A model generated the notes under the pieces. It ran no database searches and had not been told where the DNA came from. It worked only from the letters and a program-made list of their open reading frames with translations. A program made the position numbers and the translations under genes. 64,000 nt of DNA from Obrimoposthia wandeli (Eukaryota). Positions 2,325 through 30,061 of this stretch are shown piece by piece. The stretch covers positions 1 through 64,000 of the forward strand of contig CDROCS010001660.1 in assembly GCA_977020255.1 (NCBI GenBank). Reading direction: 5' to 3'. Position 1 is the stretch's first letter. The number at the start of each line of letters is the position of its first letter.

Positions 2325-2370
2325 TAATAGTAGGTGATATGTTCTGTCTAACCCCATCACCCCAACACTC
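2325..2370 (+). repeat. Degenerate Polinton terminal inverted repeat
   Basis: TAATAGTAGGTGATATGTTCTGTCTAACCCCATCACCCC aligns with the reverse complement of the 12700-12746 terminus (AGATAGTAGGTGGATGTGTCCGGTCTAATCCACACACCCC). No TSD found. Confidence 0.5.
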
Positions 2371-2827
2371 TTAAATATTAATTAACCCCATTTAAGACAC
2401 ATTAAAACTGAAAATCTCATAGTTCTCCCACAGAGTAAGGAATTGCTTGATAGATCATCTGAAGGCCAACGCGTGCCCTTTGGGCCTGCGGTGGCCCGAC
2501 AAGTAATATAAATACATGGCGAGAAAAATATTCTGTCTAAGTATTTCTATCCAGTTACACTCAAAATTACAAGGCTTTTTCCCTCATAATCCCACTCTCT
2601 AACTACACAGTCGACAAAATACTACGATTTTTTGAATAAAATATTTTTCTCTATCAAATGATATGCACGCTTTTAATTGTCATTAAAAACTTAAGAAAAT
2701 AATATGGATTTTCAAATAAATTATTTGAATAACACGTTCTCATTGGACGATGAAAGAGGGGTTAGTCTGATGTTTGTGTTTATAAGGAGAATTCTTTTCA
2801 TAATATTTCATAAATAATAAACCAATA

Positions 2828-5105
2828 ATGTCTTTTTTCAACAACGTCAACTTGGATGAAGATATGGATGTGTAGATGTATGGAGATCTTTCTCCAGTGC
2901 AGCAGCGAACACCTCCACCGTAGCAGTATATTGATTTACATAGTCAAGACTCGTCGGTGGTGAGCGAAGAAGAAGAAGAGAAAGGAGAAGCAGAAGCAGC
3001 AGCTAGAGCGGATCTGATAGACGAACCACTGGCCAGCTCAACTCCGAGAGAAGAACCAATGGCTGCGAGAGGTGGGGTACAGAGATTCCAATATATCGAT
3101 CTGACTAGTCAGGATTCAATTGAAAATTGGGAAGACTGTACTCCCCGGTGAAAAGCAGAAGCAGCTGTTCGTCCATCAACTTCGGCAGAAGCAGCAAGGA
3201 GATCGACCAATCTTTTCTACAATTCCCAGACTGCAATCTTACGAGGAACTTTTCATTGATGAGGTTCCGTCAGATCAGGAGGAGGACTTGACACCATTCA
3301 TTGATGATAAATGGATCACACCGAATCTCGAAGCCAATGACAACGCGGTTGCCAGAAATGACTTGATGGTGGCAGAATTGGACGACTATGAGTGGCGGTT
3401 GTTCACGGACAAATGAAACGGTGTCACTCCTTCAGTTACTCCAACTCCGATAGCAGACAATATGGTGCCTGAGTTATTCAGAAGGCCACAATCTCCTGTG
3501 TGACAAGTAAATAGAATAAAAGCTACGAATGAGGTTAGATTATTTATTTATTTCATATGTTTTTTTAATTTCATTTTCAGTCAATGCAGCCAAGAGATGC
3601 CAAGAAGTGAGCTCCGATATCTAGCGTCTCCGGATAATATTAAGGTAAATTATTTTATATTAGAAAATAATTTTAATTATTCACATAAAAAGCCGACCTG
3701 GTGGATGACATACTGGAAGAGACGGCTCCGCTACTACCGGTGGATAGGAAACAAGTGGTGGTTATGAAACCACAAAAACATCGAATTAAACCCCTGACTA
3801 TTCACCGGAAGAAGGTCAAATTAATGAAATAACTAAAACTGCCTGTTATTGAGGTAAATTACTTATATATTTGAATTGTATTAATGTATTTTTGTGTAGG
3901 AACCACTGCAACTATTAGATGAATGGCTGGGAGAAAGTACTCCAATACAACTGGTGAAGCAAAAATTGGCGATGGTGCGAAAATCAAGAAAGCATTGGAT
4001 CAAAACGCAAACAGTTCGGAGGAAGAAAAGAAAGCTGATAAAGCAAACAAATCTGCCTGTTATTGAGGTAATTTTGTAAAATTACTTTTTAAATTTTATT
4101 AAGGTTTTTTGTAGGAACCAGCAACACTAATTGAGGATTGGTTAAGAGAGGCCATTACAATCCCACTAAGGTGGAAGCAGAGGGCGGTGGTATGCAAAAC
4201 GAAGCGCACTAAAAAGGCAACCCCCAGTCTGTTCAAGTCTGCTGAAGTATCAATGGGAGAATCAGGATAAACTTCCTTCTCCTATTTTTGAGGAAAATTT
4301 AAAAAATATTTTTAATAATTTTATTAGTGTTTATAAATAAACATTTGTTAAATTTTATTAATGTTTTTATGCAGGAACCAGTAAAGATAACTGAGAATAG
4401 GTGGGGAGAAACTTATTCTATCCCACCTAGATGGAAGCAACGAGCAGCTGAAGACGAAGCGCTCCAAGAATTTTACCACCACTATGCTCACATCTGCAGA
4501 GGCGGTGATTAGTCGGTAGGAGATTTTCCCATCCCCAGTGGACGTCGGACCAATTTTATACGAGAGGATCCCAGTCTTTCCGATTGAGATTAGTCCTCCT
4601 TCTAGCCAACGACGCCTGCAAGAGACTTCACCCCCACCAGTCCAATCAAGTCTTAGCCAAAATTTGGTGAGAGCTTGGGAGGCTGCATATCCTCTTCCAA
4701 CTGCACTCACAAGCCAGTATTTGAAGAGGGCCTGGAACGACACATAATTGGATGAAATACTAACGGAACTGGAGACTCCACAATTAGCCATGTATCCCGA
4801 TTCAAAAGGACAACAGGATACAGTATCATGTCAGCTTCACGTGAGAAGGAGGAAAAACTGAAAAAAGTTCCACGGAAGAGGAAGGCAACAATACCGGCAA
4901 CTTCATCGGCTGCACCTCCTTCAAAAAAGTTATGACAACTCCTGCCAAAACAACCAGAACAGCCGAAGAAGAAGCACGACCGACCGAAGAAGACGGAGCC
5001 AGTGCCACTTACATAAATACCACTAAGTCGGAGGGATATCGATGAAGATGATCCCAATGATGACTTTGTGAAGTATTTCTGTACAATATAATTTATAAAA
5101 AATAA
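2828..5105 (+). pseudogene. Pseudogene of the spliced, low-complexity TIR-proximal Polinton gene
   Basis: Homologous to 23036-24944(-) (QYIDLHSQDSSVVSE, EELFIDEVPSD, GPILYERIPV, DDPNDDFVK). Introns fall at equivalent positions plus extra ones (3854-3899, 4068-4114); it has internal stops. Confidence 0.7.
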
Positions 5106-5404
5106 TACTATATGTTCTGATTTTAGAATTATAATTTTAAAAATATATTATACTTTAATTTTAAAAAGATATATTTGAAATTATTTCAGTAAACGATCAA
5201 AGATTTTTTTATAAATTTCAGTAAAGATGTTATCTTAAAAAAATTAAATGCATTTATTAGTTATTTATTTATTAAATCATACTAGAGATATAAACTTATT
5301 TGTTAAAGAAAAATATTTCCTTTAATTGAATATGATTTGATTAAAAATATTTCAAATTTCTATAAATAGGTTCAATTTTATTTACCTCTTCATTATTTAT
5401 TGAA

Positions 5405-5715
5405 ATGAAGAAACTAGTTACAAGGAAATAAGATAATATAAGAAAAAATTCAAAGAAAGGAGACCTACGAAAGAAGTATTTAAACTAAAATTTGTATTCT
5501 GCTGTCGCGAAGGAGTGGAATAGAAAAGTGGAGATTCAGGACAGGCGGCTAGCTGAAAGATGAAGGGTCGTGAAATGGAATAGGAACGTGGAATTGGAAA
5601 AACAGCAACTGGCAGAAAAAAGAAGGATGGATATGGAGGACAATCGCCGAGTTGCAAGAAAAAGAATCCTCCAGATTATTCCTGAAGAGGGTTCTTCTTA
5701 TAAAAAATAAATTTT
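5405..5715 (+). pseudogene. Decayed copy of the basic coiled-coil Polinton ORF
   Basis: Matches 22456-22818(-) (RKRILQIxPEEG); contains stops. Confidence 0.6.
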
Positions 5716-6128
5716 ATAAAAATATTTTAATTTTGATTTTATTTGTTACAATTATTTATAGTGTTATATTATTGACTAAATATTTGACATAACCATACTA
5801 AATATAAACAATTTTATATATAAGGTTTTTATAAGATGGATGATAATATAAATTGGAATAAATTATAAATTAAATTATCTCCAGATTTAATGGAAGATTA
5901 TAAAGAAAAAAAATTGCAAATTGTTGCGGATAAAATATGCAATTTACTTTCAAACTATTTAGGAATAATTAAAATTTATTTTAATATTCGTAGGTTAATT
6001 AAAAATATATAGCAATCTTAACGAGAAAAAATGAATACAGATAATTTTGATATTTTAATAAATTTTGTTTATTGGTTTCTATTTTAATTGGTTATAAACA
6101 AAAGGATTTGCGTCATATTTAGGTAATT

Positions 6129-6250
6129 ATGAAAGAATATATCATTGCCTTTGAGGCTTTCATTAATAAAAATGGAGATTATATTATAAAATAATTATGT
6201 ATTATGGATATATGCGATGTTTTTCATCCTTTGCATTTCGTATTTCATGT
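6129..6250 (+). pseudogene. 5' fragment of DEDD-like exonuclease-fold gene
   Basis: MKEYIIAFEAFINKNGDYIIK*LCIMDICDVFHPLHF matches the 5' end of 21845-22333(-) and breaks off at about 6250. Confidence 0.7.
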
Positions 6251-6419
6251 AAATAGGTGGAAGGATGGAGTCTAGGCCACTTGAGCTTCCTCCCCTGTGT
6301 GCGCACACCAACAAATGCATGTGCACGAACACCAAGAAGTGATTGTGGATTCTCACAAAGGTGGATTGCCACACCATAAGGGTCTTGCTGAGTACATTGT
6401 TGTGATTGTCAAAATATTG

Positions 6420-7103
6420 TGCGTTTAATAATGTTATGGTAATCAACAAGTTAAGGGTCAGATTGGGAACAAACTTGTTAATTTTATTACATGGTTGTAT
6501 TTTTCTTTCAAATTTGAGTTCAACCATACCTTTATGGTCATGCATTAGTTAAGGTGTCCTGATAAAAATAAAAATACTTGTAATTTCAAAAAAATAATAT
6601 TTTTTAATTCAAATTTGTGCCAATTTAATTTGTTAGATTTTGTTAAAGTTAAACAAATTTTAATTTAACAGGTTTTTAGATCTCTTCTTACCTACTACAT
6701 GTCCACTGTCAAACCCAAATTGAAGAGCTTCTCTATCAGATCCAAATATAATTTGAATAGGTTTTAAAAAATGTTTTGATCGATTTTTAAATATGACTTT
6801 GTTTTTTTCATATATTACTTTCACTTTTTTATCTATACAATTGTAATAGAATTTTCTTTTACTATCAAACCCAATCATAACTTCAATTGATTTTTCATGA
6901 TCAACTTCTTTTGTAAACGAAATATGCGAGTTTTTTCTGATAGTAATTGGAGAATAATAAAAGGAAAATTCTGTTAAAGCCGCTTCCCATTCTCCTTGGA
7001 GATTTATAGGATTTTCCCAATCGATAATAAAGCTACTAGCGTAATTATCTGGTTGAGTCTTCGGACATCCGTTACTAGGTAAAACCATATACAGAGACTT
7101 CAT
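6420..7103 (-). pseudogene. Minor capsid protein (penton), 3'-truncated
   Basis: N-terminus MKSLYMVLPSN...DNYASSFIIDWENPINLQGEWEAALTEF is the typical Polinton penton start. The frame is broken after 6660 and ends at a junction near 6420. Confidence 0.8.
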
Positions 7104-8128
7104 ATTATATTAGATGCTGATATCCAAGTTGGGTCTGAATAACCATGCCATTTAACAAAGTATTGTTTATGTTTACCTGTACCCTTAGATTTTAATCTTT
7201 TTTGAATACGGAAAACGATAGGTTTATTTGATATTACTTGTAGTTCTTGCTCGTAAAATTTACCGTGAACGATATTATTGTCAGCATCTTTAATAGTATA
7301 CATTATTGGATTACTCTTTTGATCAATTTTACTTATACAAAATATTTCATCGCTCCAATTCTGATCAAAGTTTTTAATAAATGGAGTAGAGCTAATTTTC
7401 GAAATTCGAACATATTCGTTTTTCTTATATTTAGCTTTTTTAATTTTATCTTTTTTATTCCTGTTCATCCAAATGTCCATAGAGTTTTTATTAGTAACAT
7501 CAACAGGTCTCATTCCCTTGAGACCTCTATGTTCAGAGTGATTATATGCATGTATTATTTTAGGTAAAACTTGGATCCATTTTTTATTTCCTTCTTTTGT
7601 GAAATACTTTTTTATTCGATCTCTTAGAGTACGATTAAATCTTTCTACTACTGCTGCTTTGTATTGTGAAAACACAGAGTAATGATTTATATTATTTTGT
7701 TTAAATAATGATTGAACTTGCTTATTATAATATTCTTTTCCTAAATCAGTTTGCACATTTTGCAGAGTGTCCTCTTTTAATATTTCTGTAATGGCTTCAA
7801 GCATAGCTATTGAAGACTTTGCTTTAACAGGAATTGCACTAGCAAACCTGCTAAATGCATTAATGCATGTTAAAATATATCGGTATCTCTTATTAATAGA
7901 AGAATATGGAATTATCTCCATCAAATCAATTTGCCATAAATTATTAGGACCGCTGGTTTTGTATGCTCTAGTTGGAAATCTTCTTCTCATCGGCTTGTTC
8001 AGACTGTAGGCTAACTGGTCGCTCAGCCATTTCTGCGTTTTCTTGTAATTTTGTTTTGTTCTTTTTGCTAATTTTGAAACTCCTGTGTAGTCAATTGGAT
8101 CTTTTGGATTGAACCATATCTTCTCCAT
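7100..8128 (-). CDS. Retroviral-like (rve) integrase with C-terminal chromodomain
   Basis: DDE core WQIDL / VQTDLGKEY / VERFNRTLR; C-terminal YFVKWHGY...TWI chromo motif. First ATG at 8128 (MEKIWFNP); ORF intact. Confidence 0.95.
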   Translation of the reverse strand: MEKIWFNPKDPIDYTGVSKLAKRTKQNYKKTQKWLSDQLAYSLNKPMRRRFPTRAYKTSGPNNLWQIDLMEIIPYSSINKRYRYILTCINAFSRFASAIPVKAKSSIAMLEAITEILKEDTLQNVQTDLGKEYYNKQVQSLFKQNNINHYSVFSQYKAAVVERFNRTLRDRIKKYFTKEGNKKWIQVLPKIIHAYNHSEHRGLKGMRPVDVTNKNSMDIWMNRNKKDKIKKAKYKKNEYVRISKISSTPFIKNFDQNWSDEIFCISKIDQKSNPIMYTIKDADNNIVHGKFYEQELQVISNKPIVFRIQKRLKSKGTGKHKQYFVKWHGYSDPTWISASNII

Positions 8129-8214
8129 TACAACAATTTGAATAGAAAGAAAATTTAAGTATAGGTAAAGAAGGGCTAGCACCCATATCTTTAGCTGATT
8201 TTAGAAATAATTGT

Positions 8215-8544
8215 TTATGAACGTGTCGCAGCTATAATACTACTGATAATTGAAGCAACAACTGGAATAACAGCCCATATGAAACTACCATTATGTTTAA
8301 GAATAATATTTCGTTTCCTTTTTTTACTTTTTACATTAGCAATATCTAGAAGAGTTTTTCTAAATTTCTTTAATATATTTTTCCGATTTCCAACTTTTAC
8401 TCGACCCAAAACTATATTATACAAAACTTCCAATAAATCATCTACAACAAAAGATGGAAATGCTTTAAGAATAATCATTCTCTTATTAGAAGAGGCTTTG
8501 ACTAAAGCTTTAAAATAGGGTATGCTTCTTTGTATTTTCTTCAT
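8215..8544 (-). CDS. Small basic Polinton virion/core protein with C-terminal amphipathic helix
   Basis: 109 aa, basic, ends HNGSFIWAVIPVVASIISSII; sits between ATPase and integrase as is usual in these elements. Confidence 0.65.
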   Translation of the reverse strand: MKKIQRSIPYFKALVKASSNKRMIILKAFPSFVVDDLLEVLYNIVLGRVKVGNRKNILKKFRKTLLDIANVKSKKRKRNIILKHNGSFIWAVIPVVASIISSIIAATRS

Positions 8545-9331
8545 TTTAATAAAAAAGATTCAATTTAAATATTGTTTATATTCGAAGCCATTTAAGTTTT
8601 TTTTTATTTTTAACTACAGATTTGATTAATTTTTTCACTTCTTTTTTCTTAATGATTCTTTTTTTTGATTTCTTAGATTTTACTTTACGTTTTACTATCA
8701 ACTTTGTAAAAGGCATTGCGAATTTATTTTTATAATTGTTCTCTATTTGTTTATAAACAGTTACTCCCTTAGAATTAAATATGTCTGTTAAAACACGTAA
8801 ATCATCTGGGCAAGCTTGTGTAAAGTCAATAAATATATACCCATGTGCTTGTTTAGCAGCATCGTGGAATGAATCAACTAGAAAGTTCTTATTTTGAGGA
8901 AATGCCTGTCTGGCCACAAAATCAACAACTGTTTGATCTCTAGGATTTTTAAATAAAACTAAGTAATGTACATTAAGATTTCTTGTTCTATGGTGACCTC
9001 CTTGGTGAAACAGATTTTGAGTGATAAATATAACTGTTACTTCACGATGTCTTGCAATCTTTGTAAATAAATTATTAAAGTCCGATTCCTTGTTAGCCTC
9101 CTCATACAAATCATCAATTATTATTACATCTTCTTTTTTCAACCTTTCATACCAATTTGCATCAAATCCTTCAATAAATTGTATTTCCTCAACTTGCAAA
9201 CTTCTGTTTTGGTTAATACGCTTTCCCCTCCTCCACCATGATGCCAATAAATATTTTTGAAACTAGATTTGAAAAGAGATTCATTTTGCAACAATTTACA
9301 GACGAAATGTGTCTTTCCACTTCCACTAGGG

Positions 9332-10179
9332 CAGTGGTGGGATTCAAGGGTTCGCACCGGTTCGCGCGAACCGGTTCCTAAAAATATAAAAGTTCGCAGA
9401 ACCGCCTGAACCAGTTCCTGGACTACCTAAGTTTGTTCAAAATAAGAAATATATTAACCTTCCTCGCCAAAGCCTGTTAGATTCTATTATAAAAAATATG
9501 AAACTAAGATTGATGGATTCTGATGAAATAAAAGCAAGCAAAAACTCCAAAGAAATTGATAACAAAATTCACTGTTTAGTAAACATCGTTAGCCCTGAAT
9601 CATGGGATATTGATGAAGTTGTTGTACCGTGGAAACAAGCTGAAGAAAAATTACCCGGATTCTATAAGCAGTTTCACCATAAAATATGCGTTAACGATTT
9701 CCGTGACTATGTAGAAAATGTTATAGAAAACCGTCCCAATCAAGATGTTCCTTCTACAATACAAAAAGCAAAAAATATTATTAATACAATTGCTTTGAGT
9801 TCTGCTGAAGCGGAACGCGGATTTTCAGTTATGAATGTGATATATAGCGATAAAAGGAATCGTCTTGAAGTTCAAAATGTCGCAAATCTTATGGTAATAA
9901 AGTTAATTGGTCTTCCTCTTAATTTATGGGATTCTATGGATTCTGTTAAAACGTGGCTAAGAAAACACCACACAGCTGATGATAAAAGAGTGAAGCATTC
10001 ATCTAATAGTTCTTATAATTCTAATGAATTATCAATCTGGAAATATTTGGAATATGATGGTAAATAAAATGATTAATTGGACTTGTTTATTATTAACCAC
10101 ACACGGAAAAATTGATTTAATTCCACATCAACCGGTAAATGAGCGAACCGGTTGCTAAACAGTTTGAATCCCACCACTG
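9332..10179 (+). mobile_element. Non-autonomous hAT DNA transposon (848 bp)
   Basis: 16-bp TIRs CAGTGGTGGGATTCAA / TTGAATCCCACCACTG and 8-bp TSD CACTAGGG (9324-9331, 10180-10187); carries a transposase C-terminal fragment. Confidence 0.95.
9498..10067 (+). CDS. hAT transposase C-terminal (dimerisation-domain) fragment, 189 aa
   Basis: IALSSAEAERGFSVMNVIYSDKRNRL matches the hATC motif (P.SSA..ER.FS...I....RNRL). Confidence 0.8.
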   Translation: MKLRLMDSDEIKASKNSKEIDNKIHCLVNIVSPESWDIDEVVVPWKQAEEKLPGFYKQFHHKICVNDFRDYVENVIENRPNQDVPSTIQKAKNIINTIALSSAEAERGFSVMNVIYSDKRNRLEVQNVANLMVIKLIGLPLNLWDSMDSVKTWLRKHHTADDKRVKHSSNSSYNSNELSIWKYLEYDGK

Positions 10180-10258
10180 CACTAGGGCCAACTATTTGAA
10201 ATACAGCATTATTATTTAGCTCCATTTAGCTCTTTCATTTTTAATATTGTTTATATTA

Positions 10259-10531
10259 TCATAGAAGTTTCCTTATTGAAATGTACAATGTTAGAGCTAT
10301 TGTAGATGAAATACAAAAATTAATTAATGAATATTTGGCTATAATTTTATTTATTTGTGTACGATTTCTAAATTCTCGAATAACGTGTGATCTAACCAAT
10401 ATTTCAATGTTATCTCTTGTTATATCATTATTTTTTAATTCTGATAAAATTTCTTTACCCCTAATTTTTCCAGAAAATATTTCGTCGGCAAGCCGATCCA
10501 CTTCATTGTCTCTATTTATAGTATTATTCAT
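10259..10531 (-). CDS. Small Polinton protein with hydrophobic C-terminus (possible membrane protein)
   Basis: ATG at 10531; ends YSLINFCISSTIALTLYISIRKLL; co-oriented and tightly packed between the TBP-like gene and ATPase. Confidence 0.5.
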   Translation of the reverse strand: MNNTINRDNEVDRLADEIFSGKIRGKEILSELKNNDITRDNIEILVRSHVIREFRNRTQINKIIAKYSLINFCISSTIALTLYISIRKLL

Positions 10532-10559
10532 TTGAAACAATAAGTTTAAACGGGTTTGT

Positions 10560-11059
10560 TTATAGAAAAGATAACAAGATGTAATAAGATATATTTTCTA
10601 AAATCAAATCAACAATGTCTGGATAATCAAAAATTTTCAATCCCAATATCATAACTTTACCACTAGAAAATATATTCACACATAGCGGTTTAAACTTCAA
10701 TTAACTGAGAGCAGGAAATATTTCTGGTTCAAACATGCATTCTTCTTTCATTTTCTCTGCAGTTTTAAAAAGATTTATCTGTTTCCCGAGATTAGCCGAA
10801 ATCGTGATTGATTGTATTGCAGTGATTTGAATTCCAAATGGTAAATTGAACCCAAGCATTGGTATTTTGCATCCCATAACACGACAATTTCCTAAAGAAT
10901 TCAATATGAAAATAAAATAACAAACTAACCTGTAGGAAAAATAACAACTGTGAAATTGTCAAACTTTTTTACATATTGTCTCGGCTTCCATTCATTGAAT
11001 GGTAAGTACGAATCATCATCTTCTGTTCTACCTTTATAATTTATATTTACGAGTTTCAT
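10560..11059 (-). pseudogene. TATA-binding-protein-like gene, two exons, one in-frame stop
   Basis: Exon 1 11059-10930, 38-nt GT-AG intron 10929-10892, exon 2 10891-10560. Translation has two TBP half-repeats: MKLVNINY...TVVIFPTGNCRVMGCK and IQSITISANLG...FEPEIFPAL*LKFKPLCVNIFSSGKVMILGLK. TAA at 10701-10703. Confidence 0.8.
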
Positions 11060-11272
11060 TAGACTGAAATTGTATTCTGTAAAATCTTCTTTATATATGT
11101 CTGAACCTGCTTTTTTATTGCACGTTTCTTGTAATTATCTTGCAAACCTATTATAATTGGATGATATATTTCTTCCAATCAATTTTGATTTTTAATATAG
11201 ATTTAGTCCAATCAAATTCAATGCTTTAGTTATATTAACCAATGAGATTCATTCGTCTTTGTTAGAAATTAG

Positions 11273-11280
11273 TATAAAAG
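11273..11280 (+). promoter_or_regulatory. TATA box (TATAAAAG) with upstream CCAAT motifs in the divergent promoter region
   Basis: TATAAAAG at 11273-11280, CCAAT at 11239-11243, ATG at 11311. The opposite strand has TATATAAA at 11097-11090 before the TBP-like ATG. Confidence 0.55.
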
Positions 11281-11310
11281 AATGCGCCATCGGAGGACAA
11301 ATCACAGTAA

Positions 11311-11787
11311 ATGCATTCATATCAAAGACAATTATCAACGATGGACGATAGCCAACGGGTATTAAGCGATGACGAAGAAATGTTTGAAGAATCGGATAAG
11401 GATATGTATGAAGAAGTGAAACAATATTTCAAATACAAAGTCAGATTCTTGAAGAAGGCTCAACTGATTGCTTTAGTAAATCCTGTGACAATTGAAAGAA
11501 GAAAGTTCAGCTACTATCTGTCAGGTATTCAAAAACCTGATTTTCAATATCTTAAACAGAAAGTTGAAAAGGCAGTTCCGAATTTTACTTTCAATAAGAA
11601 CGAATTTTATATACGAGGAGCCGATGAAGCATTTCTAGATGACTATGGAAGATATGTTGATATTGATGCGTTTCCGAAAAAGAAGCAATGGACTCTAACA
11701 ATTCGACTTTATGGTTACAAGAAAGATGAAATGGGAACAAAGTTGCCTATGTGGAAAATTGAACGTGCTCATATTTCTATGTTTTAA
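11311..11787 (+). CDS. Unknown Polinton protein, paralogue 1
   Basis: Intact 158-aa ORF with acidic N-terminus; shares NPV.I and W...IRL.GY...P.W....A motifs with 11931-12335. Confidence 0.65.
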   Translation: MHSYQRQLSTMDDSQRVLSDDEEMFEESDKDMYEEVKQYFKYKVRFLKKAQLIALVNPVTIERRKFSYYLSGIQKPDFQYLKQKVEKAVPNFTFNKNEFYIRGADEAFLDDYGRYVDIDAFPKKKQWTLTIRLYGYKKDEMGTKLPMWKIERAHISMF

Positions 11788-11930
11788 CTTTTTGCGTGTA
11801 ATAAATTGTAATCGGTTCACTGTGTTTCTTTCATTTGCCAATTAATAATCAGTTTTATTTGTATCTTATTTGTATCTTATATGTATTTTTTTTATAAACA
11901 TTGTTTTTTAATCAGTTTCCTTATTTTAGA

Positions 11931-12335
11931 ATGGATAATAGATGTGTAGCAAATTTTTATTATCCAGAAAGAATTTCAAAAGGAAAACTATGTAATATAT
12001 TAAAGAGGCATCAAATTATACGAGTTATGAATCCTGTGAAAATATCAAAAGTGCAGAATAAATATCTCATCGAAATTTTAACAACAACTGATATTGATCA
12101 ATTGAAAAATATTTTGGGATTTTACATTCCTGATTATGTATATGAAGGAAATTGTTTCCAGCTTGAAACTGATCCCGGTCTGGATTTTAAAGATGATCTA
12201 GGATATTTGATTGCTCCAATTCTAGATGAAGAACTATGGAATATCTCAATACGTCTCAATGGATATTTTGCTGATGACTGGAAAATGCAGCCTCTCTGGA
12301 CTTTGAGTGAAGCCAATATGTTGTTTTATGTTTAA
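11931..12335 (+). CDS. Unknown Polinton protein, paralogue 2
   Basis: ATG at 11931, TATAAA at 11893; motifs IIRVMNPVKISK and WNISIRLNGY...PLWTLSEA are shared with paralogue 1. Confidence 0.65.
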   Translation: MDNRCVANFYYPERISKGKLCNILKRHQIIRVMNPVKISKVQNKYLIEILTTTDIDQLKNILGFYIPDYVYEGNCFQLETDPGLDFKDDLGYLIAPILDEELWNISIRLNGYFADDWKMQPLWTLSEANMLFYV

Positions 12336-12642
12336 TAAATATTTTGAAATATAATTTTGTCTCGCATTTTGTTTTTTCTCCTCTAAATTATATAGATCTG
12401 ACCGATTTTTCTCCTCTAAATTCTAAAACTGACATAGATATTTAACATGTAGTAATTTATTAATCTAAAATCTTTCTTAAAAATAGTAGTAATATTTGAA
12501 ATCTCGTCTGCGAAAAGCCGCCGGGGTCAATATGGATTCTCGTGGTCTTCTCTAACCACTTTTGAGATTCGGGGTAAAATTTTTAAAAAATGTGGTGGGG
12601 GGGGGGTACCCCCCTTCCTTTCCCTATTGGGTGGAATGGAGA

Positions 12643-12746
12643 CACACATACACGAAATTTCACTCCACACACATGCTCGGTTTTAAAGGACAGTAGGGGG
12701 GTGGAGGGGGTGTGTGGATTAGACCGGACACATCCACCTACTATCT
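12643..12746 (+). repeat. Polinton TIR copy in an internal position
   Basis: CACGAAATTTCACTCCACACACATGC.CGGTTTTAAAGGACAG...GTGTGGATTAGACCGGACACATCCA..TACT is nearly identical to 25340-25422 and in the same orientation. Confidence 0.85.
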
Positions 12747-13037
12747 GGCTGGCTTAGAACATTAGGTAGATTTGCCTTTCCTCTTTTAAAGAGACTCGGA
12801 CGATTTATATCAAAATTAGGAAAGGATTACCTTTCATCTAAGGACAATAAACTAATACCAACTTTTAAGAAGCATGCGCTTGATGAACTTGATAATGTTT
12901 TACCTGAAGTTGCTAATTTGATTAGAAAACGTAAATCAAATTAAAGCCAAGGAGGTAGTGGATTTAAAAGTAAAAAGAAGCAAAAAATCAATATAAACAA
13001 ACGTAAGAAAGTTGAAGGAACAATATTTGCAAAATGA
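12747..13037 (+). pseudogene. 3' part of a Polinton core (pVII/pX-like) gene, 5'-truncated at the TIR junction
   Basis: GWLRTLGRFAFPLLKRLG...RKRKSN*SQGGSGFKSKKK...TIFAK; its TGA overlaps the MCP ATG. Confidence 0.7.
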
Positions 13038-14263
13038 GTTGCGCCAAAACTGAATTGTGTCTTTTTGATAAACCACTTCCACAAGTAGTTGTAGATAATG
13101 CTTCCTTTGAAGAAATATTTCTAGTTAACTCAGTTTCAGGAACCACTTTAACCGATTTAGAATTTAATATTAATGGTTCCAATAGCGAGTATTTAGATTT
13201 GAATTATACTTTGCTTTATGTTCAAATAAAAGTATTAAATCGGGATAGCACTAATTTAGATGAAAATGCTGATGTAACACCTATAAATTATCTCTTTAAT
13301 TCTTTATTTAGTGATGCCATTGTTACTCTTAATAATGTCAAAATTGAAGGTGGAAATTCTTCCTATGCTCATAAAGCTTTGATTGAAAGTCTTTTGAATT
13401 ATAGTACTAATACTCAAAATACCAATTTGGCAACCATTGGTTATGATAAAACGGTCGCAACTCGCAAAGAATAGATTGCGGGTTCTAAAGCTTACGAAAT
13501 GTGTGGGTCTTTGAGATTGAATTTCTTTGAACAACCGAAATATTTATTTTTCGGTGTTAATGTACATCTTCGTTTGAAACGTAATAAATGGAATTTTTCT
13601 TTGATAAGCTCAGACGTTCTAAAACCTAGACTTTATATTTTGGATGCAAAATTGTATGTCCGAAGAGTTAAAACCGAGCAATCAGTTTTAATGGCACATA
13701 ATATAGGAATTGAAATAAACAATGCTTGTTATCCTATAAGAGAAACTAAACTTATATCCTACTCTTTAGGTACGGGTACACAAGCTTTTAATAAGGATCA
13801 AATTTTTGGTGATGTAAGATTACCGAAATTCATTTTAATTTCTTTTCAAAAAACTGCAAAGTATCTAGGAAATTATACGACAGATGCAACTCAATTTGAC
13901 AATCTTAATGTAGGTTCAGTGACACTTTCAAGAAATACTGATTATCGCGAAACATATAAAACAGATTTCGAAGGTGACGCTTATGCTTTGGCTTATACGC
14001 AATCTATTATTCTGAATTTGGGCCAACTAGATAAAAATATAAACAATGGTATTTCTTTCACTGACTTTAAAAACAGCTGCCCGTTCTTCACATTTGTTTT
14101 GGCACCAGACTTTGATATAAACCAATGCCAACTACCAAAGGATGGAAATTTACGACTAGAAATTAAGTTCAATGCAGCTTTAACAAATCCTACTACGATG
14201 CTTATTTACGGAGTGTTTGATTCCGAAATACAAATCAATAAAAACAGAACTGTCATATTATAG
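13034..14263 (+). pseudogene. Major capsid protein (double jelly-roll, PY) with one in-frame TAG
   Basis: Starts MSCAKTELCLFDKP (C.KSEL.LF motif). The two ORF-track pieces are in the same frame, separated by TAG at 13472-13474. Ends GNLRLEIKFNAAL...MLIYGVFDSEIQI. Confidence 0.9.
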
Positions 14264-14264
14264 A

Positions 14265-14645
14265 ATGAAGTAAGACATTTTTTAAATTTATATTTATTAA
14301 TTTTTATTTAGTTCAGTACAAGTACAAGAATCACCAGAGAAGGTCCTTGGTGATAAATTCAATGGAGTTTATCCTATTGATATGATTCCATTTTTTCAAT
14401 CTGGAGGTTACATTATCAATACTCATACTTCGAATTTACCAGGAGAACATTGGATAGCTATTTATGTTAGAGAGTGGACAATACATGTATTTGATCCACT
14501 TGCAATGTATTATCCACACAAACTTGTTTCAACTATTCAAAAAGGACGAAGAAGAGTATTTTACAACAAGATACAATATCAGGATCCTGCGACGAGAAAC
14601 TGTGGACATTTATGTATTTTATGGTTATCGTTGCAAAACGATTAG
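14265..14645 (+). CDS. Adenain-like cysteine protease, two exons
   Basis: ATG AA, then 42-nt intron (14270-14311, GTAAG...TTTAG), giving MNSVQ...FNGVYPIDMIP. Catalytic motifs PGEHW, FDPL, YQD and NCGHLC are intact. Confidence 0.9.
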
Positions 14646-17600
14646 TGTGTTATAAAAATAAATATTTTTAATGTTTCATTTTGAATTATTTTTTTAAATC
14701 CATAAAAATATAAGGGTAAAATAATAAAAGACATAAGACGAAATTTTTGTTTAATACATTTATTAATCACAACATCACAATGAGATATGTCAAAGATAAG
14801 GTCCATCCTAAAAAAGTATTGAAATAACAAATAAGTTAGAGTCTAGGTGCCATAGGGATCTAAAATTTAAAAAAACTAAACTAAAAAAATCAAAAAATGA
14901 AAAACCGTTTAAATTCTGAAGTGTCCATAAGCCAGGCTAGCGTTCTTTTCTACCCAAAAGCGGTTGTCGTCATTACTACTCAAAGCGATTTTGGTTGATT
15001 TATGGGAATACAGTTGATGGGCTCTTGAAATAAATCTAGTTTGCTCAACGCTTTCAATACACCCAGTATCATAAACTTTCCGGTAGGCCTCATGTGTAAG
15101 ATTGTTTCTTCTCACACCCTTTGCTCTCATTGAACATGTATTATTAGATGCATGTAAACTGTAGCATTTAGGGCGTAGGAAAATACAATCATCATACGAA
15201 ACCTGTCCCTCGCTTTCATCCTTAAATTTCCCGATAATATCCTTTAAACTCATAGAATGTAGAGGATGGTTAGCGGGATATTTATGGGTATCTAATAAGT
15301 TGTCCCTAAACATTGCCGGTAATAATTGATTATTTAAACTAACATTTTTACATTCTAAAAAGAAAGAGTCAGTGTCCCCAGCTGCGATTTGGATCTCACA
15401 ATCGAATTCTCGTCGATATTTATCTAATTCTATGTATTGAAGCTCGTACATTCTGAGTTTAGAAATGATTAAAACCGTTTGACCTATATAACTCGGTCGA
15501 TCGAGACAAATACTCTGTTTTTCTAATAACACTGCTACCAAGTCATCTGCAATTGTAAAACTACGCTTGAAGTTGTACTTGCTAGTATATGTTATTAGTT
15601 TACGCTCATCATTGCAAAACCGTAGACAAATACGTTTCCGCAAGTCCTCTACAATTTTTCCAAAGAGATTATTACTTTTTAACTTGTAAAAATCCCGATC
15701 GAATTTGCTAGTGGCCAAATTACGTTTTCTAGAATTCTTCTCAATATAGTCTTTAAACACAAAGTTTTGACTGAAGCTTATAGCCCGATGAATTCGAGTA
15801 ACTTTCGCTCCCAACTTTAAGTAGAATTGAAGAAGCCGCTAATGCACAACATAATTCAACTTGTCTTCATGGGTTAACAATAATTTCTTAACCTTTGATT
15901 TAGGTGGACAGGTGCTACTGGAAGATCATCTAATTTATCATGCACATTGGAAGGGATTGTTAAGTCAACCTCAACCAAATAGCCGATGTCTGATGAAACT
16001 GTATCTACAGTAGCCAAATCTGTCATCAACTTATTCAACTCTTCCTCATCATAAACCCACTTAAAGTTGGCATGAGGTAGAGGTTGAGTAAGCGCCCACC
16101 CATACAAATTATTAATGTCGATGTACAGAATCTCCGTGGATTGATCTTTGACAACATGATGTTTGTTGACAAAAGTCATTCCACCGCGTATACCATAATC
16201 ATACATTTGATACATCGCGGGATCTTGCAGTAACTCGATATTAATTTTAAGAGTTTTTATTGCTGTTGCCCATGAAAAACCAGGTAAACTAAAGAAATGC
16301 ATAGGATCTAGCCCATCTTCTGCCAAAGACTTTACACGAAGGGACTCAAAAAAATCAGCTAAAAGATAAATGTCTAATTTCATATAATAAAGCATATATT
16401 CTAAAAGATTTCGACAATTATTCGCCCAAAATGTACGGGCCTCATTATAGTCTTGAAGACTTACACTTTCAAATTCAGTTATGGGTGGGATTTCAGTTGT
16501 ATTTTCTAAATCTGCAAAGGTTTTCGCAAATTTATACGGAAAAATCCCTTATCATTAACCGAAGCTTGGAACACTGACTGTGTGATTGGCCATGCATTTA
16601 AAGATGCCGTTAAATATTTTAAAGACCCGCTCAAAAACTGCAGAGAATCTATGAATCTTAAACTGCACAATTCAGTATATGCAGTTAAAGATAAATATTT
16701 CTCTGAAGTTTGAGGTATACATGAAATTTCCCAAGAGCTTAATGTACCCAACGTATATTTAAGTATATGATGCAAATCATATCCTTTGAGGTTATGAAAC
16801 ACGATGGGAATTCGTGGTTTTTTAGGGAGACGACGGCCAAGGTTACAGAGGTTGCACGCCGCTCCCAAGTATCGCCCCGTAACATGATCGTGATCTCTGA
16901 CTAACTTAGACTGGGTTCCACACAAATAACATAATCTACAAGAATTAAAATTAACCCAGTCTATGCCTGTCATGATCATTGCTTGATGAGCATTAAGATC
17001 ATACCACGGTTTGACAATTGTTGTTCCTAATTCTTCTAATTTTAACATAAAATCTAAAATACAATTTGGACCGGAAAATTTATGATACTGTGTAATATTG
17101 GGGCCTAAGAATAGTAGTCCTGCCGAAGCCAGTAGGTGAATACTCTCATACTGGTCGTGCAATGCTAAAATTGACTCAAAATCTGCATACACCCTGAATT
17201 CCACGGGTATGCATTTTGCTTAATCCCTGAATTTTAAATCCTTGTCCTTAGGCATGCTGTATAGCATATTGTCATCAGGATTTAGTGAACATAATGTCAG
17301 ATGTTTGCTGTAAGAGAGCTCGGATCGGAATCCATGCAAACATCTATGACATCACTTACACCTTATCCTAACCGGTAAGGCTCCATTATTTAAATTTAGA
17401 AGACGATCTAAATTGGGAATTGCAGCATAATGGAATTTTTTATTTTGTTCGAGCAAAATTAAGTTGACCTGAGTACCCTCATTTTTGCTCCTATAAATTA
17501 CATCTACAAAAGGATTTTTAAAAATTTCTTCATCTGTTACATTAACTCGGATATCAGTATTATATTTGTTATTTATTTATTTATTTATTTATCAAACATT

Positions 17601-17673
17601 TATTAATGTGAACGCGCAATCAATTTCTCAAAGGCCCCATATGGGCCTCTTCTACTTTACGTAGGTCCGGGTC

Positions 17674-18192
17674 TCAATCCCAGTACAGTTGCTGCTGGTC
17701 CTCAGTAGCAGTAACAGTAGCTGCTTGGGGTCTCGGTTTCGTCATTGGAACTTTGAGTAGGTCTGCGTAATTTTTCAGTACTCTTACGTCATCGCCGGGT
17801 ACAGTTTTGGGCCCCTCGGCAGTCTCGATTGTAGCGGGGCGACCTTTTCGGCCATTACCCGTAACCGACCGGAGGTCGGTTTTCGTGTACGATTTCTCCT
17901 CCTGTCCATGTCGACGTTTCGAACTCTGACCACCACTATTCAAATCTCCCAACAAATCTGTTCGATTGTTGATAAAAGGTCTCTTTTCGGCATACGAATC
18001 CGCTGCTTTCTCTAGACTAGTGTTGTTCTTTGCCATTACAAATTTGTCGATAATACCAGACAGTATCTTTGCACACTCCTCGTTGACATCGTAGTTTCGC
18101 AGTAACCCAAAAATATCGTCTTGGGCCCCCTGCAGGAAGTTATAATTACTCCCGTTGTTTACCTGCGCTTCATTATTTCTTTTCCTGACCAT
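17674..18192 (-). CDS. 172-aa ORF inside the retrotransposon insertion, downstream of the RLE ORF; function unknown (ORF1/gag-like N-terminus?)
   Basis: Intact ATG-initiated, GC-richer ORF; hydrophilic, with SYA / NYADLLK patches. Confidence 0.5.
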   Translation of the reverse strand: MVRKRNNEAQVNNGSNYNFLQGAQDDIFGLLRNYDVNEECAKILSGIIDKFVMAKNNTSLEKAADSYAEKRPFINNRTDLLGDLNSGGQSSKRRHGQEEKSYTKTDLRSVTGNGRKGRPATIETAEGPKTVPGDDVRVLKNYADLLKVPMTKPRPQAATVTATEDQQQLYWD

Positions 18193-18317
18193 GTCGAAGT
18201 TTTCAGATCTTATTATTTTTATTCAGATATTATTAAACAATTTTTTTTTGTTTGTTTGTTTTATGGATCATTGACAAAAGGCTTATTTTCGGCACACGAA
18301 TCTGCTGTTGTTTGTTG

Positions 18318-18688
18318 TTGTTGGTTGTTGGTTGTTGGTTGTTGGTTGTTGGTTGGTGGTTGGTGGTTGGTGGTTGGTGGTTGTTGGTTGTTGGTTGTTG
18401 GTTGTTGGTTGTTGGTTGTTGGTTGTTGGTTGTTGGTTGTTGGTTGTTGGTTGTTGGTTGTTGGTTGTTGGTTGTTGGTTGTTGGTTGTTGGTTGTTGTT
18501 TGTTGGTTGTTGGTTGTTGGTTGTTGGTTGTTGGTTGTTGGTTGTTGGTTGTTGGTTGTTGGTTGTTGGTTGTTGGTTGTTGGTTGTTGGTTGTTGGTTG
18601 TTGGTAGTTGGTTGTTGGTTGTTGGTTGTTGGTTGTTGGTTGTTGGTTGTTGGTTGTTGGTTGTTGATTGTTGGTTGTTGGTTGTTGT
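18318..18688. repeat. (GGTTGTT)n heptamer tract, about 50 units
   Basis: Directly visible; a few variant units (GGTGGTT, GGTAGTT, GATTGTT). Confidence 0.98.
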
Positions 18689-18734
18689 TATAGTTTGTTT
18701 TTTTTTTTTGTTTTTTTTGAAGGGTCTTTTTTTA

Positions 18735-19946
18735 TTTTACGTAGGTCCAGGTCTCAATCTTCTCCAATTCCTCGGCTGACAACTTATCCAGGATCATAGT
18801 TGTATGACTCGAGAATTTAGCCCACGAGGCCGCCGTATGTTCGATGGTTTTCAGAGTTAGTCGGATCTTGATATCTTTGATCTACTTTGCTTTAAAACCA
18901 GCATTTGCAAAGATCCGGTTATTGATTTCAGGCCAGTAGCCGAGGGTCCCGATCCTTAGCGCGTAGAAATGCACGAGTTTTTCTGGGTGGCGGGTCTTTA
19001 GCATTTCAACGAGCTCCGCGTATTTGGACACAGTTTCGGCGAGCCTCAGATCAAATGACATGTCAGAGTCAAACGGGATCTTGATCTCTATCAGCATCAC
19101 CTTATAGTCAGTCTCGATCGTTATGTCTGGTCGTGGTCTGCGGCTGTTTCCGTTATCGTCTACACATAAGTGGGTCAGCTCTTGAGTTACCTGTCCTGGA
19201 TATTTTAGTTCCATTACCCTTGCAGTTTCCCGGCAGATCATGTCGTGTCTTTGAATTCATAGTTTTGCTATGAGCTTACAACCAACGATTGCATGGCTCA
19301 TCGACTCTCGCTCCTGGCATCCCTTCCTGCATGGGGCGATCATATCAGTCCTGGGGCCTCGTACCTTCATGCGCCCGCACCTTGCGCGGTGGATGAAGAA
19401 CCACCCTCGGTACATCAGACGGCCCTTCATGATGGCCCGGTTAATGTCTGTGTCTGATGTGGCGTTCTTATATATTGGACTCGCTAGCTTGTCTTCGAGA
19501 ACCTTGTGACTCTGGCTGAGTTGCACAATGTTATGCATCGCCTTACTTATGGCCTTGTAGGTCTTGAACTGCATGAGAAAACTGCCTCCATGGGCGCTGG
19601 TTATGAAAAGATTGAGTGCTTGGTCCTTCTCAATCAGTTTTAGTTTGATATTTAGCTCATTCTGGAATTTCTTGGCCGCGTGGAACAGCCGCGTCCAAAG
19701 TCCCGTATCTTTCATGTTAGTGGCTAGGGTCCCTTCATTAAACCCCTGAACTGCTTCGGAGAAGGTCATTGGCGGATTAGGAAACTTCAATTGTTCGGTG
19801 AGCTCACGCCTGCATAGGTTCTTCAGGTCCCTGTCGCGTACATTTGCCATCTTTATCGTCTGGATGATGGACTGGATGTTATATTCGTCCTCAATCCTTG
19901 TCAGCCCAAGACCTCCACGGTCCTTGTGCCCATAGAGAACTCCGAT
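18735..19946 (-). pseudogene. RT C-terminus + CCHC-type knuckle + RLE endonuclease remnant
   Basis: ORF-track pieces 19257-20024 (after the PolB junction) and 18882-19241; read-through ends ...EKIETWTYVK*. Confidence 0.85.
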
Positions 19947-21844: not shown

Positions 21845-22333
21845 TTATCTACATGTCAAGTAATAATAAAATAGACTTAAACATTTTTTATATGCGCAAT
21901 GGTCACCATGATTACGATATGGACAGCAAATATTTCGTGGAATTTTTAATAGATGATCACGTGAAATATTTAAAGTATTCAATTTCAATTTGGGAAAATA
22001 TTTTTTTAAAGTCTTATATTTTTTGCCATCCATTTCATCTAAAACATAAAAAATTCCATTTTCTATATCAAAATTAGATGTTATTGTATCGAAAATACAT
22101 ATTTCACAAAAAGCCTTATGTCCTTCTTTCCATTTTAATAAATGAAAGTAATTAGTTAGATATAAATTAGTAAATTATTTCTTATAATCTAAACTTTTAA
22201 ACGGGATATCTATTTGAAATATGAAATGCAAAGGATGAAAAACGTCGCATACATCCATAATACATAATTCTTTTATAATATAATCACCATTTTTGTTAAT
22301 GAAAGCCTCAAAATCTATGATATATTCCTGCAT
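21845..22333 (-). pseudogene. DEDD-like exonuclease-fold Polinton protein with C-terminal Cys/His cluster, one stop
   Basis: MQEYIIDFEAF...YIIKELC...KK*...CCPYRNHGDHCAYKKC; 163 codons; TATAAA 31 nt upstream. Confidence 0.6.
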
Positions 22334-22455
22334 AATTATCTAAATTTGCAGCAAATCCGGTTGTTTATAACGAAAAAAATCATTAATCAAAAATTTATTA
22401 AAATAACAAAGTACTCAGTCTTTCATGTTAAGATTGGTATATATTGTCAATTCTC

Positions 22456-24944: not shown

Positions 24945-25331
24945 TGTTGATTTATGAAAAATAATGAACGGATGTGTCTTTATATACACAAACATCTTAC
25001 TAACCCTCTTTTATTGTCCAATGAGAGCCTCTTATTCAAATAATTTATTTTTTGTAATGTTTTTCGTGCCTGGAGATCGACTTTCATCGGGTGGTGTATG
25101 TTAGGGTCTTGGGTATGACACGGGTCGTCTACATGTGTCGTCACCAGCACCCACCACCAACCAACGACTTACACCCATCACCCATCGACTTTCACCCAAC
25201 ACCCATCGACTTACACCCACCGTCCAACACCCATCACTCATCACCCAAGGAAGTCTGTGATATACACCCGTCCCGAGCCTTTCGCGCCAAAAGACGCAAA
25301 AAAATCTGTAGGAATCTGAAATTTCACTCCA

Positions 25332-25422
25332 CACACCTACACGAAATTTCACTCCACACACATGCACGGTTTTAAAGGACAGGAGGAGGGGGTGTGGATT
25401 AGACCGGACACATCCATTTACT
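25332..25422 (+). repeat. Polinton terminal inverted repeat (outer end of the PolB arm)
   Basis: Matches 12643-12746; ends ...CCGGACACATCCATTTACT (5'-AGTA on the minus strand). Confidence 0.85.
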
Positions 25423-27918: not shown

Positions 27919-28766
27919 CAGTGGTGGGATTCAAACTGTTTAGCAACCGGTTCGCTCATTTACCGGTTGATGTGGAATTAAATCAATTTTTCCGTGTGTG
28001 GTTAATAATAAACAAGTCCAATTAATCATTTTATTTACCATCATATTCCAAATATTTCCAGATTGATAATTCATTAGAATTATAAGAACTATTAGATGAA
28101 TGCTTCACTCTTTTATCATCAGCTGTGTGGTGTTTTCTTAGCCACGTTTTAACAGAATCCATAGAATCCCATAAATTAAGAGGAAGACCAATTAACTTTA
28201 TTACCATAAGATTTGCGACATTTTGAACTTCAAGACGATTCCTTTTATCGCTATATATCACATTCATAACTGAAAATCCGCGTTCCGCTTCAGCAGAACT
28301 CAAAGCAATTGTATTAATAATATTTTTTGCTTTTTGTATTGTAGAAGGAACATCTTGATTGGGACGGTTTTCTATAACATTTTCTACATAGTCACGGAAA
28401 TCGTTAACGCATATTTTATGGTGAAACTGCTTATAGAATCCGGGTAATTTTTCTTCAGCTTGTTTCCACGGTACAACAACTTCATCAATATCCCATGATT
28501 CAGGGCTAACGATGTTTACTAAACAGTGAATTTTGTTATCAATTTCTTTGGAGTTTTTGCTTGCTTTTATTTCATCAGAATCCATCAATCTTAGTTTCAT
28601 ATTTTTTATAATAGAATCTAACAGGCTTTGGCGAGGAAGGTTAATATATTTCTTATTTTGAACAAACTTAGGTAGTCCAGGAACTGGTTCAGGCGGTTCT
28701 GCGAACTTTTATATTTTTAGGAACCGGTTCGCGCGAACCGGTGCGAACCCTTGAATCCCACCACTG
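27919..28766 (-). mobile_element. Second copy of the 848-bp hAT element
   Basis: Same TIRs, same length, identical 189-aa ORF (28031-28600); 8-bp TSD CTTATATC (27911-27918, 28767-28774). Confidence 0.95.
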
Positions 28767-30061
28767 CTTATATCTATTTGCTAGCTTATTTAATCTTAAA
28801 TGATTTATTGTAATAAAAAACAATGTAATTAATCAAAAAATGGGTAAATTATATGCTGAGAAAGATACTAAAAGTAATTTCAAAATATTGTTTTTGTTAT
28901 TACTAACTATGAAAAGGTTAATTTTTTGTCCAATATAATGTTTTTTAGAAAATGTACTTATTTTCAAATTCTTCATATCAAAAATTAAATTGAATTCTAC
29001 TATTTATTTTAAAATTAATTATTTGTTAATATTCAATTTTTTTAAAAATTGCATAATTATTAACATTTGTTAAGTATGTTTAAATAATGTTGCTTTGAAA
29101 TCAATTTCAGAATTGCAGCTAGAGCTCTTCAAGTTAGTGCAATTTATTAAAATAATCGATAAATTTCATGCTTAGAAAAAAAAAATTCAAATGTAGAAAA
29201 GTTTACATTTACATTGATACTAATAATGTATTGATTTTTTATTAATTCAATAAATTAGTTTTATTCAATATTGATTGAAAAATCCTTTAAAATTATTTTG
29301 AATGGATATGTTCAATGTCTGTTATATCACTGGATTTATATCTCGGAACATATGTATCAGTCGGTTATAGATGAGATCAATTGAGTTATTTTGTATTCAA
29401 TTTTGTAATTTTAAAAAGAATTCAATATTCCTAAGTAATTTTATAAAGATTTTAACAGATTTTACAGGAGTAATTTAAGGATTTAATGAAAATGACCAAG
29501 ATATAAACATTTATTCACAAAATGTCTTTTTCAGAAGATGGAAAATATGTTTTGATGTGACCAGAATCTCATATGAAGCTAGTGGAATCCAGGTTTATGG
29601 TTAGTAACTTGAACTTAGCTTATAAATTGATCAAAATTCTCTAGGTGTATAAATTAAATAATATGTTAAATAAATCAATATTTCTATAAATATATAAAAA
29701 AACAGTGCAAGATACTCAATCCCTTAAATATTGTTTTCACTATTTGGTTTTAATTACAATGTAATGCGAAAATGCAATATACCATGTATAGTGAAGGGAA
29801 CGGAAGAATCAAATTATTGACAAATGTAACCAAATATGAATACTTCTCCAGTAAGTATGGTTATTCAGGGAACATCCAAATACCTCGAAATGTAATATCG
29901 CTTGCAATGAGCTTCTCAATTTTTTTAGGCATTCCAAGGACATTTGCCTGTACTGAATACTGTCAACAAGCAATACGAAACTTATCTCTGACATGTAGAT
30001 ATATTTCTGGGGCTTCTTCGTCACTGGATAGCTTCTTTCTTATATGCTTCTGACATCTTCT

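Follow-up and report, generated by a model that had tools for sequence, protein, structure and literature searches.

A trimmed TATA-binding-protein-like gene conserved in a Polinton clade and its candidate altered TATA box, YATAAACR

According to the accessible sections of PMC6541308, the herpesvirus mimics of TATA-binding protein (TBP), KSHV ORF24, EBV BcRF1 and HCMV UL87, read TATT late promoters. Nearer to the element described here, a 'TBP' label was given to MELD viruses with an adintovirus-like PolB in the legend of Fig. 5 of Starrett et al. (2021, PMC8502044). There too a Polinton-related virus has a TBP-like gene, given as a legend entry only; the available text of that paper and its preprint (10.1101/697771) gives no account of TBP distribution, structure, promoter or function, and the supplement, as far as available, gives none either. 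Vertebrate Mavericks, as described in the accessible part of PMC8097293, share with our element the set of integrase, polymerase, ATPase, protease and capsid genes and an AGT-type terminal motif. They possess eight intronless core genes and TBP is not mentioned in that part, whereas the clade studied here adds a TBP-like gene that is intron-split in some lineages. Neither TBP nor TATA occurs in the main texts, in their accessible form, of PMC8097293, PMC10748475, 10.1101/2024.03.18.585575, 10.64898/2026.06.19.733378 and 10.64898/2026.10.13.758929. Our search of the open literature gave no paper with a Polinton TBP or its box as its subject, while a supplementary gene table may list TBP; no literature was found on TATAAAC with TBP and Hoogsteen pairing. 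A sequence-only reading of the locus had placed TBP outside the standard Polinton gene set, a claim whose novelty is lowered by the MELD-virus legend entry in the part of PMC8502044 cited above and by the routine presence of the gene in this clade. New beyond that reading is the occurrence of the motif YATAAACR ahead of the ATPase, the putative capsid and two other gene classes, and never ahead of TBP.

The window, a stretch of 64,000 nucleotides from Obrimoposthia wandeli, contains both a retrovirus-like integrase with a chromodomain (7100..8200, minus strand; Pfam rve, 42 bits) and a protein-primed DNA polymerase B in three broken frames (14909..17219, minus; Pfam DNA_pol_B_2), which identifies the element as a Polinton/Maverick. 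The putative packaging ATPase (8576..10225, minus), named from its Walker A motif and gene order, carries a frameshift and a hAT-type insertion (9332..10179) with an 8-bp target duplication that is absent in 6/6 other copies. An identical 849-nt hAT-type insertion occurs in opposite orientation at 27919-28767. The putative major capsid gene (13034..14263, plus) has one internal stop; its name and that of the putative penton gene were given on size and gene order, and a Pfam scan of the two genes gave no match. An adenovirus-type protease (14301..14645, plus) gave a weak Pfam Peptidase_C5 match under the cut-off. Between the TBP-like gene and the ATPase lies the small gene orf10262 (10259..10531, minus). 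The two paralogous genes orf11311 and orf11898 (11311..12335, plus) are about 28% identical and without Pfam match; their C-terminal part may resemble OB-fold single-strand-binding proteins, and orf11311-type genes were seen close to TBP at 13 other loci. A conserved gene of about 155 residues, orf21845 (21845-22333, minus), has an N-terminal IDFE-type acidic motif, which we take to be reminiscent of DEDD exonucleases, and no Pfam match. Its relatives were found at 14 loci; in metagenome contigs they often immediately precede TBP. Pfam scans of the element revealed no TFIIB-like or RNA polymerase gene.

The terminal repeats are about 100 bp long and end in a CTACT-type motif, the AGT-type Polinton end. 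The repeat that forms the right end in typical copies is located at 12642..12743 (plus) and that of the left end, 86% like it, at 25331..25422 (plus). In the window they stand in direct orientation because the block 6692-12745, which includes the TBP-like gene, is flipped relative to 5/6 other copies. The order in these five is left arm, polymerase, protease, capsid, the 6692-12745 block in opposite orientation and a terminal repeat; the sixth copy compared is a fragment. In the same 5/6 copies the terminal repeat follows about 1.7 kb beyond TBP, so that TBP lies just inside the right end and is therefore part of the element. The earlier proposal that TBP resides in a block bounded by terminal inverted repeats thus stood as far as the gene is element-borne, and failed for the repeats, since the long inverted arms (2.7-6.3 kb and 22.2-25.0 kb, 70-90% alike) were rejected as termini in favour of the real repeats of about 100 bp; they represent a diverged left arm instead. 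The segment at about 2325-6255 is a left arm from a related but more diverged element; it is 67-75% like the left arms of other copies and may have a terminus at about 2325. The window element is a dead, rearranged Polinton copy, as the hAT-type insertion splits the ATPase and both capsid and polymerase are interrupted. A further 2.4-kb insertion at 17568-19946, with a tandem repeat and pieces like non-LTR-retrotransposon ends, is absent in 5/5 comparable copies. Long uniform strand-skew blocks of opposite sign at 30000-55000 are probably large retroelements.

The TBP-like gene comprises two exons on the minus strand. Exon 1 (10930..11059; 130 nt, i.e. 43 codons plus 1 nt) covers the N-lobe strands to a conserved Phe and is colinear with intronless relatives in the alignment, and exon 2 (10560..10891; 332 nt) covers the N-lobe end and a complete C-lobe with an EPE stirrup. 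Predicted splicing of a phase-1 GT-AG intron of 38 nt (10892..10929) gives a frame of 462 nt, or 153 codons plus stop. The coordinates bear out the frame and intron originally described, all quoted motifs of both half-repeats were located in it, and the gene is co-oriented with the ATPase as claimed. Three of the four intercalating Phe are indeed kept; the missing one is the first Phe of the N-lobe. With the in-frame TAA read as X, exon 2 matched Pfam PF00352 with 41.5 bits (E 1.2e-10; curated cut-off 22.9 bits), and 35 of the 37 PDB sequence matches were TBP chains. The best of these were archaeal, which was not counted as a sign of the gene's origin. The TAA (10701..10703, minus; exon-2 codon 63) is the single interruption noted before and occurs in 2 of the 20 closest copies, the window copy included. 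A canonical TATA box (11090..11097, minus) lies 30 nt upstream of the start codon and would constitute an early promoter used by host TBP. The region 11059-10560 is thereby confirmed as a two-exon TBP homologue with one stop in the window copy.

GT..AG ends at the intron site are kept in all 20 closest copies, and intronless relatives align over the splice junction without a gap. At least three families in the O. wandeli genome have an insert of 35-43 nt at the same phase-1 site with GT..AG ends and differing interiors, and one family has no intron there. Over 54 copies in this genome, 44 showed GT..AG, five an insert with unclear ends and five none; a metagenome locus (L071) has a GT-AG insert of 40 nt there as well. 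Since host TBP reads through this site uninterrupted, the intron was not inherited from host TBP. The tree needs two changes and, with its unresolved backbone, accommodates one gain followed by losses as well as parallel gains. Judged by these alignments the intron is real, and its presence at one site in several lineages and absence in others would mean that the genes go through host nuclear splicing.

A DNA search of the O. wandeli genome returned 1772 first-look candidates, a number of candidates and not of copies. All 40 that were scored were full length, and the 39 beyond the window copy were 98% identical. Intact copies, which the sequence-only reading had proposed to look for in the host genome, are abundant among the 20 closest: 13 are open, two (including the window copy) have the window stop, one has another stop and four an exon-2 indel, and several Polinton families carry relatives. 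A Pfam TBP search of the same genome gave 19768 candidates, of which 150 were scored. At 20 Pfam-found loci analysed with their flanks, the TBP-like gene was present and adjoined other element genes in every case, and 12 of these loci belong to other families with about 50-57% identity. Five loci of the same genome (L031, L050, L131, L132 and L140) represent an intronless TBP family with another gene order, TBP being next to the polymerase block. From a metagenome scan 51 loci were obtained, three of which (L099-L101) were removed as cellular-TBP-like. Among the 48 kept, TBP adjoined an ATPase, integrase, capsid, protease or polymerase gene at 18 and another gene of this Polinton element at 15, and the remaining 15 were short contigs without neighbour match. 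A profile search for the family gave 46 clusters at E < 1e-30.

Anchoring the search of the O. wandeli genome on the capsid gene instead, we found the TBP-like gene in 16/20 regions. The other four belong to the window family and are copies with deletions or rearrangements, and a TBP-less Polinton family, sought in this way, was not present among the 20 regions. By this count the Polintons of this clade carry the TBP-like gene as a routine component in the O. wandeli genome. ATPase-anchored contigs from prokaryote assemblies had the gene in 2/3; these Polinton contigs (L146, L147 and L148) sit within three bacterial metagenome-assembled genomes and are probably mis-binned eukaryotic or viral DNA. 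Scans of IMG/VR with TBP, capsid and ATPase queries and of a phage collection for the ATPase gave no matches.

In a 70-row tree, midpoint-rooted for drawing only, the Polinton TBP family was split from the host and cellular TBPs with support 99/97, a separate clade in the comparison with host TBP that had been suggested. The host itself has, besides TBP, several divergent paralogues (contigs C238, C60, C1092 and C968 of G000; loci L021-L030), with Polinton fragments lying no more than 1 kb away at L025 and L027, and its TFIIB gene is split over exons. Selection on exon 2 was estimated for 17 pairs and for a pool of 15 indel-free close copies. Eight unsaturated pairs with dS > 0.4 had dN/dS values of 0.11-0.25 and six pairs were saturated. 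Three young window-family pairs with few changes gave 0.49-0.94 and the pooled close copies 0.32; the raised values in the young pairs are expected, since many copies decay. These comparisons support that the TBP-like gene is element-borne and under purifying selection, and not a host pseudogene.

The fold was modelled for a natural intronless relative, P0003, which stands in for the window protein and is 63% identical to its exon 1 and about 50% to its exon 2. The model (pLDDT 94.9) has the two-lobed TBP saddle, with an N-lobe predicted to consist only of strands and loops, helices H1 and H2 being absent. It aligned with TBP structures over 149-153 residues (Z ~13, rmsd 2.5-3.0) and matched TBP in Foldseek with E 3.6e-09, which together with the Pfam score of the window gene is in line with the TBP fold originally proposed. 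Relatives score 50-64 bits against PF00352. A deeper-branching long form, from the 18-kb Polinton contig L095, keeps both N-lobe helices. Its H2 segment is acidic, with one basic and five acidic residues versus eight and four in host TBP, so the H2 basic patch is missing even in the long form. Also encoded on this contig are a KilA-N protein and a phospholipase A2 domain of the parvovirus type.

Across 53 short-form sequences both L5.1 Phe were present in 53/53 and the stirrup Phe was invariant; the stirrup Glu at C.L3.2 and C.L3.4 were found in 51/53 and 53/53. At the positions that we take, from the alignment, to be equivalent to yeast I194, V203 and L205, the sequences have Arg (50/53), Cys (52/53) and Asn (53/53). 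I194, V203 and L205 are the positions defining the altered-specificity mutant TBPm3, and the TBP N-lobe faces the TATA box at its 3' half (PMC1636458, available text). According to the accessible part of PMC7221094 (Ravarani et al.), the two stirrup Glu contact TFIIB and the basic patch of the N-lobe binds TFIIA, TAF1, Mot1 and Brf. Measured against a canonical TBP, the element proteins retain the acidic stirrup and lack both the full set of four Phe and the H2 basic patch of the N-lobe. Host-TBP DNA-contacting Asn and Thr are partly replaced as well, which could also mean weaker binding.

The sequence TATAAACA was noticed upstream of several genes. In the window, seven start codons have it or its C form 22-34 nt upstream; the boxes ahead of TBP and orf11311, both 30 nt away, are canonical, that of orf11311 lying at 11273..11280 (plus). 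On the minus strand, YATAAACR boxes overlap the TBP stop codon (10557..10564, 25 nt upstream of orf10262), precede the ATPase start codon by 22 nt (10248..10255), overlap the ATPase stop codon upstream of the small basic gene orf8215 (8573..8580) and, in the C form, overlap the orf8215 stop codon upstream of an MG-starting frame and the integrase (8212..8219); another lies 28 nt upstream of orf21845 (22362..22369). On the plus strand, boxes are located 30 nt upstream of orf11898 (11893..11900) and 34 nt upstream of the putative major capsid gene (12992..12999). The MG-starting frame (8186-8100, minus) is short, ends with a Cys-Cys stretch and overlaps the integrase start 3' of the box; similar Met-Gly/Cys-Cys frames occur in L065, L071 and L075. 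The frame may encode a myristoylated peptide, or else a leader joined by splicing or frameshifting. At about 7170, within the integrase chromodomain coding sequence, CATAAACA lies about 60 nt upstream of the putative penton start, as it does ahead of the putative penton in six other loci (L031, L033, L035, L037, L038 and L065); it could reflect either a box or a constraint on the coding sequence.

Boxes were counted 15-47 nt upstream of start codons in genes de-replicated at 75% protein identity, leaving out ORFs without a nearby Met or without 60 nt upstream. In these counts, which are not independent events because the lineages are related, YATAAACR preceded the ATPase in 13/13, the orf21845 class in 10/11, the orf8215 class in 9/13, the putative capsid in 5/9, orf11898 in 4/4 and orf10262 in 3/4. 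It preceded the integrase in 3/15 and the putative penton (minor capsid) in 2/13, and within the same interval it was found ahead of the protease in 0/4, the pre-capsid gene in 0/8 and TBP genes in 0/28. Shuffle maxima were 1-2 for the ATPase, orf21845, orf8215 and capsid classes and 0-2 across all gene classes, and no YATAAACR occurred on the reverse strand of the upstream windows. TBP genes had a canonical TATA box in 10/28, against a shuffle maximum of five. The preference for C at base 7 was counted without requiring C and with three more contigs added: C was present at 40/45 sites, versus 0/10 ahead of TBP and 14.7% in other DNA. The boxes are located in non-coding DNA, over stop codons and within reading frames. 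To call the genes behind the box 'late' is our inference, since the protease, pre-capsid and most minor capsid genes are boxless and some box genes are unnamed. The ATPase boxes of the TBP-bearing contigs L146 and L147 are imperfect. L148, the sole contig found without TBP (5.5 kb, incomplete, n=1), has a canonical box ahead of its ATPase, which would fit a pairing of TBP with YATAAACR. Long-form relatives with both N-lobe helices use the same box; loss of the helices is therefore not the source of box specificity.

We consider it likely that the conserved, trimmed Polinton TBP reads its own altered TATA box, YATAAACR, and recruits host TFIIB and RNA polymerase II to the packaging and putative structural genes. 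Transcription of the TBP-like gene would be driven by host TBP at the canonical TATA box, and the transcript would lose its intron to the host spliceosome. The element TBP would then bind YATAAACR, as suggested by its altered DNA face at the specificity positions and the remodelled N-lobe, the half that faces the 3' part of the box. The kept EPE stirrup would bind host TFIIB; the contact of TFIIB with TBP needs DNA. Loss of the basic N-lobe helix may free the protein from control by Mot1, TAF1 and TFIIA. Together these steps would amount to an early-to-late switch analogous to that of beta- and gamma-herpesviruses. No partner protein of the element TBP was found. The idea of the sequence-only reading that a minimal TBP acts at the element's own promoters is thereby upheld for an element-borne gene under selection and modified for the promoters, which have YATAAACR ahead of packaging and putative structural genes and a canonical TATA box ahead of TBP itself. 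The competition with TFIID that it also considered is less likely, because the N-lobe surface gripped by TAF1, TFIIA and Mot1 (PMC7221094, accessible part) is missing from the model. The farther-reaching version, in which a large animal Polinton clade runs an early-to-late switch with the smallest working two-lobed TBP, of about 150 residues, host-orthogonal, reading YATAAACR, hijacking TFIIB and blind to Mot1 and TFIID, seems to us evenly balanced.

A possible, rather unlikely alternative is that YATAAACR serves host TBP or a paralogue as a weak TATA box, while the element TBP sequesters TFIIB, shuts host or early promoters, or binds element DNA in replication or packaging. The box is one base off TATAWAWR, and host TBP partly tolerates changes at positions 1 and 7, TATAAAcg keeping 27% activity in one plant assay (available text of PMC10005294). 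TBP paralogues exist in the host, and the kept acidic stirrup would also suit a TFIIB decoy. However, reading by host TBP would not explain why C has been fixed at base 7 in AT-rich DNA, at 40/45 sites in lineages of about 40% protein identity, and a pure decoy does not need invariant altered residues on its DNA face.

We give still less weight to the idea that another factor binds YATAAACR, such as a host forkhead or an element protein, or that it serves the gene upstream as a variant poly(A) signal, the link to TBP being coincidental. The forkhead consensus RYAAAYA fits ATAAACA, but its best form, GTAAACA, stood ahead of a gene start in 0/40 cases, none of the boxes counted lies on the reverse strand, and position 1 is A at only 2/45 box sites. 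TATAAA and CATAAA are poly(A) signal variants, and 32/43 box-bearing starts have a co-oriented upstream gene, often with the box over its stop codon. Yet at gene ends the box occurred in 21/83 cases when a gene follows versus 5/82 when none does, a bias that AATAAA does not have (16/83 versus 19/82), and one box precedes a divergent gene (L065). Both readings are disfavoured by the GTAAACA count, the gene-end bias and the scarcity of A at position 1. That the gene is a host TBP pseudogene captured in one family, as the stop in the window copy and its dead, rearranged element might suggest, is highly improbable and refuted by the 13/20 open closest copies, the Polinton core genes adjoining relatives in 18/48 metagenome loci, the 99/97 separation from host TBP, the uninterrupted host gene at the intron site and the purifying selection on exon 2.

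If the preferred reading of a TBP paired with its own box is true, it would address how animal Polintons time their genes and whether they act as autonomous nuclear viruses. Late transcription in a genome of 17-20 kb would then have converged with that of herpesviruses, and the element would be a natural experiment on which TBP parts are dispensable. Under the farther-reaching version, Polintons would have a true viral gene cascade independent of a helper virus, their late genes could be recognised by the box as a signature, and protein and box would form a compact orthogonal TBP-promoter system.

Compared with cellular TBP (PF00352; PDB 1cdw, 1ytb) and TRF/TBPL, the element protein shares a predicted saddle fold, three of the four intercalating Phe and the acidic C-lobe stirrup. 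It differs in its size of about 145-160 residues, the loss of the first Phe, invariant changes of the DNA face and its position in a separate clade; the short form also appears, in the model, to lack H1 and H2. With the TBP-like proteins of nucleocytoplasmic large DNA viruses (accessible part of PMC7221094; BFVD matches), it has in common a viral TBP fold without the regulatory signature of the host N-lobe, at 10-20% identity to the BFVD matches. Most of these proteins, as described there, have diverged stirrups and are accompanied by a TFIIB of the virus, whereas in our element family the stirrup Glu residues are nearly invariant and Pfam scans of the element showed no TFIIB-like gene. The likeness to the herpesvirus mimics, as far as these are described in the accessible sources, would be one of function by analogy: a virus-encoded TBP-like factor and a modified TATA box ahead of structural genes, in the nucleus and with host RNA polymerase II. 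The box enriched ahead of putative late and structural genes was found here, whereas a polymerase II-binding domain and a multi-subunit complex were not. In those sources the mimics are large, bind polymerase II directly and work in a six-member complex, and their box differs from the canonical one at base 4; the element protein is no more than a core, about 150 residues long, with a TFIIB-type stirrup, and its YATAAACR differs at base 7 and also at base 1.
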